From an uncultured Gammaproteobacteria bacterium (GTDB taxonomy: Bacteria > Patescibacteriota > Patescibacteriia > Patescibacteriales > GWC2-42-12): a stretch of DNA of 40,292 nt. This document shows, piece after piece, positions 2,490 through 6,462 of the stretch. Numbering within the stretch: the first letter of the stretch is position 1; each line of letters begins with the position of its first letter. The position numbers were made by a program, and so were the translations under genes. The notes beneath the pieces are model-generated. The model was not told the DNA's origin. It made no database searches and saw only the letters and a list, made by a program, of their open reading frames with translations. Where the stretch lies: contig CAZKKV010000004.1 in the NCBI GenBank assembly GCA_964553705.1, positions 1-40,292 of the forward strand, written 5' to 3'.

Positions 2490-3026
2490 ATGACAGAGCA
2501 ATTTAAAATCAGAGATATGCGGAAAAAGGAAAAGTATTTTGTTGATGACGCTTATTTGAATGGGTATGCACGACTTTGCAGTGTATATGCCACTGCTGTC
2601 TACAATTCGTTGAGCCGACACGCTAATTTTCATAATCAAACTTGTTTTCCTTCCATAGAAAGAATAGCCAAACAACATAATATTTCTCGGCCATCAGTGA
2701 TTAAAGCATTAGCCAAATTAGAAAAATATAAAATTATCAGACGGGATAAACAGAAGGATAAAAAAGGACGGTGGAAAAACAATTTTTATACGCTATTAGA
2801 CAAATCAGAGTGGCTTCCGAAAAACGACCAAATAAACGACATTGACTTGGAAAACCAAGTAAGCCATATTTCAAAACCGAGTAAACGAGATTTCAAAAAC
2901 CAAGTAAATGACATTGACTGTAAGGATAATAAAGAGATTAAGGTTAATAAATGTAATGATAACAAGAAAATGCTTAAAAAAATAAGAAAAGAATTATCAG
3001 ATAAACTTGGTTGGCGATTAAAATAA
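2490..3026 (+). CDS. Winged-HTH (HTH_36-like) protein, phage-type replication initiator-like
   Basis: AVYNSLSRHA...CFPSIERIAKQHNISRPSVIKALAKLEKYKII...NFYTL pattern, with direct repeats in the 3' half. Confidence 0.75.
   Translation: MTEQFKIRDMRKKEKYFVDDAYLNGYARLCSVYATAVYNSLSRHANFHNQTCFPSIERIAKQHNISRPSVIKALAKLEKYKIIRRDKQKDKKGRWKNNFYTLLDKSEWLPKNDQINDIDLENQVSHISKPSKRDFKNQVNDIDCKDNKEIKVNKCNDNKKMLKKIRKELSDKLGWRLK
2827..2919 (+). repeat. Four imperfect direct repeats (iteron-like) inside the HTH gene
   Basis: ACCAAATAAACGACATTGACT (2827), ACCAAGTAAGCCATATTTCAAA (2854), ACCGAGTAAACGAGATTTCAAAA (2876), ACCAAGTAAATGACATTGACT (2899); spacing 27/22/23. Confidence 0.7.
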
Positions 3027-3054
3027 AAAGAGTATATACCCATAACTTACGCTT

Positions 3055-3408
3055 ATGATTAAATCAAGAATTATAAAAATAGAAAAAAGTATTCCTACAA
3101 ATGATCGTCCTTTAAGGGAGCTTTCAAATGTCCAATTGGCAAATACTGCCTTAAAATTGCGTCTTGTTATTTATAAGCGAATGAATGGAGAAAATACAAT
3201 GCGCGAATATAAGGAACTATTTATAGACAACCCGACAATGTTTGAGATGTTAGACCAAACCGATAAAACACACTCTGAAATGCTTGTTTTATTAGGGAAG
3301 CAAAAAGAATGGGAGATAAATCACGAAAAATCCCAAGAACTTAAAGATGAGATTGCCGAACAATACGACAAAATTATAAAGGCATATAAGTTTTTTAAAA
3401 AAGTATGA
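3055..3408 (+). CDS. Hypothetical protein
   Basis: 117-aa ORF in the operon with an ATGA overlap with the next gene. Confidence 0.7.
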   Translation: MIKSRIIKIEKSIPTNDRPLRELSNVQLANTALKLRLVIYKRMNGENTMREYKELFIDNPTMFEMLDQTDKTHSEMLVLLGKQKEWEINHEKSQELKDEIAEQYDKIIKAYKFFKKV

Positions 3409-3761
3409 GGTGTGAATATATAAAAATTGATAAAAAACAATGTTCTGCCAATGCAATGAAAAACAGTAAGTTTTGTTTTACACATAATCCTGATATGAAA
3501 GAGCAAAAGAGAGCAGCGGTCATCAAGGGTGGAAAAATGTCAAAGAAAAACCACAGCTTTCTCCCGTCAGTTACTCTCAATCAATCAAAAGACGTTGTTG
3601 ATTTATTGGCGACAACTATAAATGAAATAAGAGGCGGGTTGGTTGAAGTAAAAATTGCAAATTGTATAGGATATTTATCCGGTCATTTAATTAAAGCCTT
3701 TGAAATTGTTGACCTAGAAGAACGAGTTTCAAAAATTGAACAAACCCTTAATAAAAAATAA
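3405..3761 (+). CDS. CCCH zinc-finger protein, terminase-small-subunit-like architecture (tentative)
   Basis: C-x9-C-x10-C-x2-H, then KGGK and a helical C-terminus ending LEERVSKIE. Confidence 0.6.
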   Translation: MRCEYIKIDKKQCSANAMKNSKFCFTHNPDMKEQKRAAVIKGGKMSKKNHSFLPSVTLNQSKDVVDLLATTINEIRGGLVEVKIANCIGYLSGHLIKAFEIVDLEERVSKIEQTLNKK

Positions 3762-3786
3762 AATTATATTAAAAATATTCCATAAG

Positions 3787-3795
3787 TGTTATAAT
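3787..3795 (+). promoter_or_regulatory. Extended -10 promoter of the recombinase
   Basis: TGtTATAAT; the predicted +1 near 3801-3802 coincides with the start of the long hairpin. Confidence 0.65.
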
Positions 3796-3800
3796 AATAA

Positions 3801-3927
3801 CGTTGCCTATATTACAATTAAACCCGAAGTTTTATTATTGCTTCGTTGCCTTAAAGGGGCGGCTATTCTAATGAAGCAATCCTTCGGGAAAGTGTAATTA
3901 GGCAACGGTAGCCGCTCCTTTAAGTTT
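3801..3927 (+). ncRNA. Candidate structured 5' leader RNA (long hairpin plus loop-to-3' pairing)
   Basis: Nested stems 3801-3809/3899-3907, 3811-3816/3893-3898, 3823-3829/3882-3888 and 3837-3847/3870-3880; loop 3850-3866 is complementary to 3908-3924. Confidence 0.7.
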
Positions 3928-5589
3928 ATGAACCAACCAACAACTAAAATTAAATACTTTCTTTACGCCAGAAAATCATCAGAAAGCGAAGACCGACAAG
4001 TGCAGTCCATTGACGATCAAACAAATCGGCTGAAAAAATTAGCCAATGATTTAGGTTTGGATATTAAAAAAATCTACGTTGAGGCGAAGTCAGCCAAGAA
4101 ACCAAACAATCGGCCGATTTTTGATGAGGTCATACAAAGAATTGAAAACGGAGAGGCAGACGGTATTTTATGCTGGCAAATAAACCGACTTTCTCGTAAT
4201 CCTATTGATAGCGGTAGATTAAGCTGGCTTTTACAAAGAGGGGTTCTTAAATCAATTCAGACCATAGACAGACAATATCTCCCAGAGGATAATGTTTTAC
4301 TTTTTAGTGTTGAAAGTGGCGTGGCCAACCAATACATTCTTGATTTAAGCAAAAATACTAAACGAGGTATGCTTTCCAAGATAGAAAAGGGCTGGCAAAC
4401 CGGTATAGCACCGCTTGGCTATCTTAACGACAAGGAAAATAAAACTATTATAAGCGATCCGGAGCGTTTTAATGTTGTTAGAAAAATGTGGGACTTAATG
4501 CTAACCGGCAACTACACACCACCAAAGATTTTAGATAAAGCAAATAAGGAATGGGGGTTTAGGACAAGAAAGTTTAAGCGTATCGGTGGTGGTGAATTAT
4601 CACGAAGTGGTATTTATAAAATCTTTACAAGCTTGTTTTACGCCGGCATTATTGAAAGTGGCGGAGTTCAATATGAAGGAAAACACGAACGAATGATTAC
4701 TCTTGAAGAATATGACCGAGCACAAATACTTCTTGGCAGAAAAGGCAAACCAAGACCAAAGCACCACGAGTTTGCTTTTACCGGTTCAATTCGTTGCGGT
4801 GTTTGCGGTTGTCTTTATACTGCCGAAACAAAAAAGAAAATCTTGAAAACAACTGGGGAAGTAAAAGAATATACTTATTATCATTGCACAAGAAAAACAA
4901 CAAAGATTAAATGCGATCAAAAAAAGAATATTCCAGTTGAAGATTTAGAGTTATCTATTGAGAAAGAAATAGAAAAATATACTATTTTGCCAGAGTTTTT
5001 AGAATGGGCGCTGGAAGGCTTGAATAAAAAGAATGATACCGAGATTGACGACAGATCAAAGATTTACGAAATGCAACACAAAACTTTAACTGAAACGCAA
5101 AAAGAATTAGATGAACTTACTAAAATGAGATATCGCCAACTTATTGACGACGAAACTTTTATTAAAGAAAAAAATGCACTTCAAGTTAAAACCTCCCAGC
5201 TCAAGGAAAACTTGCGAGAAACGGAAACACGAGCTGATAAATGGCTGGAACTAACTGAAAAAACTTTCAACTTCGCAACTTACGCTCGCAAGGCATTTAT
5301 AACTACGGAAGGAGAAGCAGGGTTAGAACTGAAAAAAGAAATATTATTAGCGTTAGGAAAAACGCCGATAATTAAAGACGAAAAACTCCTTATTGAGCCG
5401 AATGAATGGTTTGTGCCAATCAAAAATAACTATTCTGCTTTAGAGAAAGAATACGTAGGGTTAGAACTAAACAAAATACCTTTAAATAAAGCAAAAACAG
5501 AAGCTCTCACTTCTGTTCGTGCACAATGGCTCCGGGGCAGGGATTCGAACCCCGATCAGCTGGACCAGAACCAGCTGTCCTACCATTAG
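3928..5589 (+). CDS. Large serine recombinase (integrase)
   Basis: YARKS catalytic motif, RLSRN, recombinase domain APLGY, Zn ribbon CGVCG...YYHC...C and a coiled-coil C-terminus. Confidence 0.95.
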   Translation: MNQPTTKIKYFLYARKSSESEDRQVQSIDDQTNRLKKLANDLGLDIKKIYVEAKSAKKPNNRPIFDEVIQRIENGEADGILCWQINRLSRNPIDSGRLSWLLQRGVLKSIQTIDRQYLPEDNVLLFSVESGVANQYILDLSKNTKRGMLSKIEKGWQTGIAPLGYLNDKENKTIISDPERFNVVRKMWDLMLTGNYTPPKILDKANKEWGFRTRKFKRIGGGELSRSGIYKIFTSLFYAGIIESGGVQYEGKHERMITLEEYDRAQILLGRKGKPRPKHHEFAFTGSIRCGVCGCLYTAETKKKILKTTGEVKEYTYYHCTRKTTKIKCDQKKNIPVEDLELSIEKEIEKYTILPEFLEWALEGLNKKNDTEIDDRSKIYEMQHKTLTETQKELDELTKMRYRQLIDDETFIKEKNALQVKTSQLKENLRETETRADKWLELTEKTFNFATYARKAFITTEGEAGLELKKEILLALGKTPIIKDEKLLIEPNEWFVPIKNNYSALEKEYVGLELNKIPLNKAKTEALTSVRAQWLRGRDSNPDQLDQNQLSYH

Positions 5590-5600
5590 ACGACCCCGGA
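5527..5600 (-). tRNA. tRNA-Gln (anticodon CTG) with encoded CCA
   Basis: Reverse complement TCCGGGGTCGTCTAATGGTAGGACAGCTGGTTCTGGTCCAGCTGATCGGGGTTCGAATCCCTGCCCCGGAGCCA forms a full cloverleaf. Confidence 0.97.
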
Positions 5601-5625
5601 ATACATAAAATAAAACTTTCTAACT

Positions 5626-6462
5626 TTATAAACTTTCTGACTTTTTACTGTATTCCTCTATTCTTTTTTTAATCTCTGGAATTTTTTCCTCTGCTGCTTT
5701 CTTACCGATATCAAAAAATCTTTCCATACCGTAGAACTTAAAACTTTCAATTATCCCACCCATTTCCGGTCTAATAATAATGGCTGAACCATTTACTTTG
5801 TCAACATTATATTTAACTGCCTGTGTCCTAATAATATCATACGCTTGTAAAAGCGTTGTGATAACAGTTGGCTTCTCTGTTATATTAAGATTTCTTTTTG
5901 GTATCAAATCTACACCGATAATAATGTCAGCGCCAAACTCTTTTACTTTATCAACTGGTGTTGGATTGACGACTCCGCCGTCTATTAGATATGTCCCATT
6001 CCATTCTACTGGTGGAAAAATTCCTGGTACACTCATGCTGGCTCTAACAGCCTCTCTAACACTACCTTGGTTCAGAATAACTTCGCTACCATCTGATAAA
6101 TTCGTAGCCACGATATAAAGTGGGATTTTTGTATCAGAGAATTGTTTATCATTGAATAATTCTTCTAAATATTTTTGTACCTTTTTGCCCTTCATGAGCG
6201 AACGTTTAGGATTGGCAATGTCCATCAATTTTTTTATCGCTTTTGTTTTGCTGTAACCTATGAAAATAGCTTCCATGTCAGTAAAACTCATACCTAGTGC
6301 ATAACAAGCGCCAGCCATCGCTCCGCTACTAGTACCGACGATAAAATCAACATCAATTTCAGCACCGTGTAGAGCTTTTAGTATTCCAATGTGAGCAACT
6401 CCTCGTGCGCCACCACCACCCAAAGCTATACCAATTTTTGGTTTTTTATTTGTCATAGTCAT
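5626..6462 (-). CDS. Patatin-like phospholipase (RssA/NTE family)
   Basis: GGGGARG, GTSSG nucleophile motif and DGG. Confidence 0.92.
   Translation of the reverse strand: MTMTNKKPKIGIALGGGGARGVAHIGILKALHGAEIDVDFIVGTSSGAMAGACYALGMSFTDMEAIFIGYSKTKAIKKLMDIANPKRSLMKGKKVQKYLEELFNDKQFSDTKIPLYIVATNLSDGSEVILNQGSVREAVRASMSVPGIFPPVEWNGTYLIDGGVVNPTPVDKVKEFGADIIIGVDLIPKRNLNITEKPTVITTLLQAYDIIRTQAVKYNVDKVNGSAIIIRPEMGGIIESFKFYGMERFFDIGKKAAEEKIPEIKKRIEEYSKKSESL

Follow-up and report, generated by a model that had tools for sequence, protein, structure and literature searches.

We examined a window of 40,292 nucleotides (nt) from the genome of an uncultured bacterium of the phylum Patescibacteriota (lineage GWC2-42-12; contig CAZKKV010000004.1 of assembly GCA_964553705.1, positions 1 to 40,292, forward strand), in which a large serine recombinase (integrase) gene runs into an oppositely oriented tRNA-Gln gene, its integration target. 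A putative structured leader RNA fills the stretch between the promoter of the recombinase gene and its start codon. On comparison with related loci, this leader is one member of a widespread RNA family of about 120 nt found in mobile elements of the ultra-small Patescibacteria. The features of the locus are collected in Table 1.

In the window, the leader as delimited by the family spans 3802-3921 on the plus strand, with transcription predicted to start at about 3801-3802. A first-pass annotation, made from the letters alone, had described a promoter, a four-segment hairpin and a pairing between the hairpin loop and the region before the start codon, and all of these elements could be read back where it had placed them. 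The apical loop of the hairpin (20 nt) includes the segment at 3850-3866, which is complementary to the tail at 3908-3924 over 17 pairs, two of them G.U (G3858.T3916 and T3866.G3908); the tail ends 3 nt before the recombinase ATG (3928-3930). The plus strand reaches a minimum free energy of -44.7 kcal/mol against -29.3 ± 3.5 kcal/mol in 200 shuffles, none of which folds as well (z = -4.41), and compensatory changes among relatives occur in both the hairpin and the loop-to-start pairing, so both parts of the predicted structure are confirmed. A finer detail of the first reading did not survive: a second CGTTGCCT at 3844-3851, put forward as an alternative pairing partner, is present in the window and is not conserved in the family, where variation in the 9 nt that precede the loop segment follows P4 and not P1, and we rejected it.

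Table 1. Features of the leader and recombinase locus in window coordinates
Feature	Position	Strand	Basis or comment
Extended -10 promoter element TGTTATAAT	3787-3795	+	Read in sequence
P1 arms CGTTGCCTA / TAGGCAACG	3801-3809 / 3899-3907	+	Window fold
P2 arms ATTACA / TGTAAT, after bulged T3810	3811-3816 / 3893-3898	+	Window fold
P3 arms CCCGAAG / CTTCGGG	3823-3829 / 3882-3888	+	Window fold
U-rich asymmetric bulge TTTTATT at the P3-P4 junction	3830-3836	+	T run nearly invariant in the 88-sequence alignment
P4 arms ATTGCTTCGTT(G) / (T)AATGAAGCAAT	3837-3848 / 3869-3880	+	Window fold
Loop segment 'A' CTTAAAGGGGCGGCTAT	3850-3866	+	Complementary to the tail just before the start codon
CTAA, which may alternatively pair with TTAG 3898-3901 (inner P1 3' arm)	3868-3871	+	
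TCC-TTCG-GGA, possible small tetraloop hairpin in the P3 3' arm	3880-3889	+	Alternative fold only
3' tail GTAGCCGCTCCTTTAAG, partner of the loop	3908-3924	+	-20 to -4 relative to ATG
Large serine recombinase gene, 553 amino acids	3928-5589	+	Pfam Resolvase 6.7e-19, Zn_ribbon_recom 4.5e-10, Recombinase 4.1e-06
tRNA-Gln(CTG), integration target	5527-5600	-	ARAGORN; Rfam tRNA 59.1 bits

Relatives of the recombinase were abundant, with 3952 proteins at E ≤0.001 among 8000 scored candidates. A protein-anchored scan of species genomes gave 38 loci, 28 of which include the gene start, and seven of these 28 carry the same hairpin and loop-tail design directly upstream of the gene, built from visibly different stem sequences. 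A DNA search pattern drawn from the conserved loop and tail (fixed AAAGGGGCGG plus CCGYYYYTTT) matched at least 120 stretches in metagenome contigs, about 100 of the listed matches being true copies. The pattern-holding loci numbered 131; 109 passed a test for P1 pairing and reduced to 88 unique cores, from which L040 (standing for four loci) and L055 were dropped by eye, neither being matched by the covariance model, and to which L006 and L011 were added. No recombinase relatives were found in viral contigs, and none of the five pattern stretches from such contigs (L040-L044) proved to be a family member: L041, L042 and L043 fail the P1 pairing test; L040 and L044 pass this loose test, but L040 has no covariance-model match and L044 is, as judged by eye, the same sequence. 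At least 90 distinct family copies were gathered.

A covariance model (R1), built from 13 loci with a hand-written structure and with the window excluded, matched the window at 3802-3921 on the plus strand with 103.8 bits (E = 4e-21), against 17.1 bits (E = 0.51) for its best minus-strand match. The alignment of a further model, R2, contained four antisense rows, which inflated its antisense matches; R2 scored the window copy, the only one in the window's 763-kb genome, at 97.1 bits. Among 150 other species genomes sampled from the same phylum, eight hold one copy each, and these are spread across many families. L002 (4866-5004) and L005 (4751-4889) contain a distant leader variant about 1 kb upstream of the recombinase, in which P1 differs (GUCCUACAAG) and the loop-tail core shows compensated changes; this variant precedes an extra open reading frame (ORF; YceG-like in L005, unassigned in L002), which is followed by the recombinase.

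The first-pass annotation had named covariation in homologous loci, the loop-3' helix included, as the check on its structure, and such covariation was found. The alignment fitted to the model comprised 96 rows, among them six spurious antisense matches that we removed for our own counts (90 rows). Over the 96 rows, 93.8% of the cells in the four helices and the loop-tail helix are paired, compared with 75.3 ± 0.4% after shuffling; the covariation score is 0.462 against 0.150 for shuffled alignments, a value reached in none of 500 shuffles, and it falls to 0.046-0.091 when partners are slid by one to three columns. Changes on both sides of a pair occur in some sequence for 39 of the 48 pairs, with pairs of the loop-tail helix among them. 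These counts favor the nested helices, because the alignment was fitted to them; the loop-tail helix lies outside the covariance model and yet covaries in its variable part (columns 114-186: CG 52, AU 30; columns 116-179: GC 77, AU 9; columns 112-189: CG 30, UA 7). In the family, P1 is 99.8% paired and all nine of its pairs change on both sides, P3 is 87-99% paired with every pair covarying, and P4 is 71-93% paired with changes on both sides in 12 of 12 pairs; P2 is the least regular helix (76.7% paired). The loop-tail helix is 95-99% paired. Its contiguous part has a mean length of 14.0 bp (range 7-16, 86 sequences) and is extended by one or two further covarying pairs. From this comparative evidence, we conclude that the leader structure is under selection. 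Several members (L013, L066, L115, L151 and others) have a loop-tail helix lengthened by 3-5 further covarying pairs between the nt directly 5' of the loop segment and those directly 3' of the tail, such as CCCG/CGGG and GCGCG/CGCGC, with which the pairing reaches to within a few nt of the ATG.

The core of the loop-tail helix, AAAGGGGCGG/CCGYCCCUUU, is near-invariant in the set collected with the pattern. It varies in the eight whole-genome copies found by the model, where two positions have A-U in place of G-C (L171, as in L002; L169 and L172) and where a U.U pair recurs in L168 and L170, as it does, by eye, in L011. Outside the helices, the only conserved unpaired positions in the 88-sequence alignment are the U run and two loop C residues.

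A -10-like hexamer (at least five of six matches, with T1, A2 and T6) was found in 83 of 90 copies and ends exactly 6 nt before the first base of the model in 80; 63 of the boxes are perfect TATAAT, and 35 have a TG extension. Given this spacing, the predicted +1 coincides with the first paired base of P1, in line with the earlier placement of +1 at the foot of the hairpin. The strand can be read from wobble pairs: with one conserved loop-tail G.U pair left aside, itself kept in 84 of the 90 copies, the 90 rows hold 170 G.U cells versus 62 A.C cells. Together with the fixed position of the -10 box, this excess points to a plus-strand RNA that starts at the hairpin foot, and, with the difference in R1 score between the strands, it bears out the suggestion that selection acts at the RNA level on the plus strand. 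In the window, a terminator scan called no plus-strand terminator within 3300-4300, and a generic promoter scan called no minus-strand promoter reading into the leader.

The same observations bear on whether the repeats could be a feature of the DNA itself, such as attP, an operator or a cruciform. Nested inverted repeats do adjoin the integrase gene, and the minus strand of the leader region also folds (z = -3.57). The pairing is nonetheless asymmetric between the strands, which would not be seen in a double-stranded DNA site, and the conserved G.U pair would be A.C on the other strand; the four nested helices are variable in sequence and spacing; and the leader is intact in the integrated copy, where an attP site would have been split by integration and where the host junction is found 1.6 kb away, at the tRNA. 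We consider a DNA-level feature extremely improbable.

That the leader occupies the 5' untranslated region (UTR) of a large serine recombinase gene, as first proposed for the window on sequence alone, extends to the family. The window protein has Resolvase, Recombinase and Zn_ribbon_recom domains. A downstream ORF is callable in 84 of the 90 copies, 75 of these ORFs having at least 100 amino acids (aa); a Resolvase domain (E ≤1e-5) was detected in 70 of the 75. In four of the remaining five (L145, L149, L002 and L005), the recombinase is the next, overlapping gene, and in L064 the contig ends. Several recombinase subfamilies are represented, and three family enzymes that we compared with that of the window share 27%, 28% and 25% identity with it. 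Since the leader precedes recombinases that are only 25-28% identical, the RNA is better conserved than the protein. In L154, the recombinase frame is broken into pieces of 155 and 403 aa, and this is probably a decayed copy. The L014-L029 clade, whose recombinases are 55-57% identical to that of the window, has a different and strongly conserved upstream segment (..gacttgcaattaccccacgaagaaggtaacacagcaacacccc..), located about 70 nt before the recombinase start and directly after the stop of the upstream ORF, which may be another leader.

The position of the leader relative to the start codon is also conserved. From the end of the conserved tail to the start codon, the distance has a median of 8 nt (interquartile range 6-14) and is at most 20 nt in 68 of 76 copies; this spacer is 77% A+U, with a Shine-Dalgarno (SD)-like motif in two of the 76. 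The window has such a motif within 20 nt of the start in one of its 27 ORFs of at least 150 aa, and its upstream regions are A/U-rich, the recombinase leader being the sole GC-rich one. Judged by these start regions, the host genome is nearly free of SD sites. We had considered that the loop segment might mimic an SD sequence, an idea dropped because the host hardly uses SD sites.

A GC-rich helix close to a gene start could be an intrinsic terminator, with the leader acting as a transcription attenuator for the integrase gene. U-rich sequence does follow the GC-rich helix, both in many relatives and in the window itself (CCTTTAAGTTT). However, a run of at least four U after the tail occurs in only 30 of 76 copies, the helix would enclose a loop of about 40-50 nt, the terminator scan made no plus-strand call at the leader, and the conserved feature is closeness to the start codon. 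Attenuation thus appears quite improbable.

What the conserved helix does overlap is the ribosome landing region beside the start codon. We propose, as the probable reading, that the leader acts in cis to occlude the start region, so limiting or switching integrase synthesis. Directed by the near-consensus -10 box, transcription would begin with the first P1 base, and the nascent RNA would fold into the P1-P4 hairpin, displaying in its 20-nt loop a purine-rich segment (AAAGGGGCGG plus 4-5 variable nt). The pyrimidine-rich tail (..CCGYCCCUUU), once made, would pair with this loop in a helix of 14-17 bp that ends a few nt before the AUG and buries about -4 to -20. In a host with few SD sites and A/U-rich start regions, a GC-rich helix at this place should strongly reduce initiation, which would keep integrase levels low. 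An analogy is SD-less Flavobacterium, in which initiation is reported to be tuned by mRNA structure (PMC6847099). The loop-tail helix may form while the hairpin stays intact, giving a pseudoknot, or it may be part of a second fold that excludes the first and also takes up the inner P1 3' arm. The mutually exclusive version would be an on/off switch, with the hairpin as the on state and the long 3' helix, which leaves the 5' end exposed, as the off state. Start regions of this organism are unstructured elsewhere, and a helix that restrains initiation would be the simplest reading of the conserved architecture.

Energies in a nested model place the two states close together: over 86 sequences, the hairpin with the loop-tail helix forbidden reaches -42.9 ± 5.2 kcal/mol and the enforced loop-tail helix -45.6 ± 6.3 kcal/mol, the hairpin being the more stable in 26 of the 86. 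Besides the loop-tail helix, the second fold contains two additions: 4 bp formed by the CCAR that follows the loop segment with the YUGG of the inner P1 3' arm, and a small tetraloop hairpin inside the P3 3' arm. We scored these additions in 61 sequences, after setting aside by eye 27 of the 88 as near-duplicates or length variants. The seven pairs are 96.2% paired versus 88.4% after shuffling, and their covariation score is 0.409 against 0.258 in shuffled alignments (0 of 500 as high) and at most 0.117 with slid partners. The CCAR x YUGG helix is 98.4% paired and the tetraloop hairpin, of CUC..GAG and UCC..GGA types, is 93.3% paired, probably through few independent events. Relative to the consensus CCAA:UUGG, compensated versions are found in the window and L157 (CUAA:UUAG), in L004 (CAAA:UUUG) and in L084 and L137 (CAAC:GUUG). 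Three lineages with unusual P1 arms carry matching changes in the second fold; L013 has A.C, and L093 is ambiguous.

These compensated pairs, specific to the alternative fold, are unexpected if the leader is instead a static, compact pseudoknot at the 5' end that protects the mRNA from 5'-end-dependent decay or sets a constant low level of translation, with no switching. Such a structure would agree with the predicted transcript start, which in 80 of 90 copies is the first paired P1 base, with the linker of 0-2 nt between the P1 3' arm and the tail, across which the 5' end could stack on a continuous helix, and with covariation in both the hairpin and the loop-tail helix, which have no nucleotides in common. 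On steric reasoning, a 15-bp helix on a closed loop of 20 nt would be strained. We give the static pseudoknot a small though appreciable probability.

Near-equal energies of the two folds would also suit a sensor, in which the fold is shifted by the integrase, an excision factor, a host protein or a small ligand, making the leader autoregulatory or the founder of a new riboswitch class. The loop-tail core and the U-run bulge are conserved beyond the needs of pairing, and the barrier between the folds is high in nested models, so a factor would help. There are, however, few conserved unpaired nucleotides to form a pocket, and integrases only 25-28% identical to that of the window argue against recognition by a specific integrase surface; a sensor therefore has a small probability in our view. 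In the same vein, and likewise unlikely, the leader may be a signal-reading RNA common to divergent integrases, or be bound by the integrase or a directionality factor, coupling integration and excision to the state of the host. This would explain why the loop-tail core, the G.U pair and the U run are conserved across such divergent integrases.

Several observations weigh against occlusion of the start region, or against its switching form. The start codon itself is unpaired. On geometric reasoning, a helix of 15 bp would be strained if its loop, of 20 nt, is closed by P4 and the linkers measure 3-5 and 1-3 nt; in that full form it is doubtful, which favors a shorter pseudoknot or mutual exclusion. 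The sequence of the loop-tail core is conserved far beyond what pairing needs; part of this conservation was imposed by the search pattern, and the remainder hints at some further partner. RNAalifold, run on an unfitted MAFFT alignment, recovers the loop-tail helix only and not the hairpin, because the variable stems are misaligned there, and it was for this reason that the structure was written by hand on the 13 seeds. The second fold rests on seven pairs and probably few independent changes, and its pairs are irregular in the model-fitted alignment of 90 rows (columns 124-161: AT 36, GT 13 and GC 8 versus AC 9, GG 7 and CC 6). Finally, a pseudoknot-free refolding path meets a barrier of about 37 kcal/mol, a figure uninformative on real kinetics; with such a barrier, spontaneous switching would need pseudoknotted intermediates or a factor.

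The elements that bear the leader are plasmid-like integrative elements, and the window contig begins inside one. Its left part encodes HsdM and an HTH_36 protein, and a 14.3-kb contig of the family that lacks a tRNA after the recombinase gene encodes a methylase, an HTH_17 protein and a Toprim primase-like protein. Within the HTH_36 gene, towards its 3' end, 2827-2919 contains short repeats that look iteron-like: one unit of 21 nt occurs twice at a spacing of 72 nt, and another of 22 nt is repeated in tandem. At the other end of the recombinase gene, the last 63 nt of the ORF (5527-5589, plus strand) are antisense to tRNA-Gln, so that in the integrated state the final ~21 residues of the recombinase are encoded by the tRNA gene. 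Of 47 complete recombinase ORFs of the family, 36 end within, or shortly beyond, a tRNA gene on the opposite strand, the other 11 having no tRNA, several of them because the locus ends there. The family's targets are tRNA genes for Gln, Asn, Trp, His, Ala, Arg, Glu, Gly, Ser and Met, and the same layout with differing tRNA identities is seen even among recombinases 73-82% identical to that of the window. At 5490-5526, and at the same place in relatives, the coding end of the recombinase contains a conserved hairpin (..acagaagc..gcttctgt-like) that abuts the tRNA 3' end and could serve as the terminator of the tRNA or be one arm of an attachment site. As for the left end of the element, the window contains no repeat of the tRNA's 3' portion that would mark it, and the rest of the genome no convincing one.

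This diversity of targets allowed us to weigh the suggestion, made in the first-pass annotation, that the RNA is a cofactor of the recombinase. Such a cofactor could be a guide like the bridge RNA of IS110, or could act in assembly or directionality. As with bridge RNAs and the seekRNAs of IS1111 (PMC11208158), a mobile element here encodes a structured RNA in the 5' UTR of its recombinase gene, and the RNA is better conserved than the protein. Bridge RNAs and seekRNAs serve another enzyme class and have programmable loops that match target and donor DNA. The leader differs on each count: its loops are conserved and not programmable, it precedes a Resolvase-type and not a DEDD enzyme, and it is continuous with the coding region, with no terminator or gap ahead of the ORF. 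Its variable parts do not sort by target tRNA. Over 36 loci, the longest match between each RNA and its own attachment region is 7.1-7.2 nt versus 7.1 nt for non-cognate regions, a comparison that split guides of 4-5 nt would escape. With complementarity that is not specific to the cognate attachment region and recombinases only 25-28% identical, the cofactor claim finds no backing, and we rate a partner RNA of this kind as highly improbable.

Occlusion of the start region, the reading that we favor, has precedents of several sorts. Like the leaders of IncI-alpha and IncB repZ/repA, to which the first-pass annotation had likened it, the leader has a hairpin loop that pairs beside the ribosome site of the downstream gene. 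The repZ pseudoknot of these plasmids is short and activates translation; it depends on a leader peptide being translated, and an antisense RNA blocks it. The likeness stands for the loop pairing next to a start site and goes no further: unlike that of repZ, the helix is long and lies over the start region itself, which points to repression and not to activation, and no conserved leader ORF was seen by eye in the family alignments, which were not scanned by script, the ATG at 3870 of the window being absent from TCTG-type members. The leader also resembles two-state leaders such as attenuators, riboswitch platforms and hok, in that YUGG has two competing partners of the same sequence, a CCAR in the P1 5' arm and a CCAR after the loop segment, in folds of similar energy. 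Because none of the nucleotides of the main occluding helix are used in the first fold, the two would exclude each other largely on steric grounds; in contrast with two-state leaders, no ligand, leader peptide or terminator is evident.

The closest parallel in purpose is IS200 tnpA, where a 5' UTR sequesters the start site of a mobile-element recombinase mRNA (PMC4513863). In both cases, an element-carried cis leader would keep a DNA-rearranging enzyme low, here as inferred from structure. IS200 uses a simple stem-loop with an antisense small RNA and Hfq, in contrast with a 120-nt, four-helix hairpin with a loop-start pairing of 14-17 bp; the present leader also differs in its nearly SD-less hosts, in its large serine recombinase and in that no antisense partner is known. 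The expectation that the leader matches no described Rfam family was confirmed: at gathering score, a search of the whole window with Rfam 15 returned the tRNA only, and at E ≤10 within 3000-6000 it returned the tRNA and three weak matches elsewhere, none in 3787-3930. We found no published description of the leader in the literature, the supplementary motif lists of RNA-discovery papers lying outside this view, nor does it appear in the passages available of a paper on 224 motifs (PMC5737381). Start-hiding cis leaders are already known as a kind, which does not hold for this leader family, its architecture or its link to serine integrases.

Large serine integrases are workhorses of genome engineering, and little is known of the natural control of their expression. 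One RNA design, supported by strong covariation, stands here before integrase genes from several subfamilies that diverge deeply, in plasmid-like elements that insert at the ends of many different tRNA genes across Patescibacteria. It offers a new RNA family for structural and mechanistic study, in which a closed loop takes part in a long-range helix and two states are possible, and may be used as a marker for finding these elements. The leader also opens a view on the control of translation in uncultivated bacteria that nearly lack SD sites. If it did prove to sense a signal, it would link the behavior of mobile elements to the physiology of their hosts.

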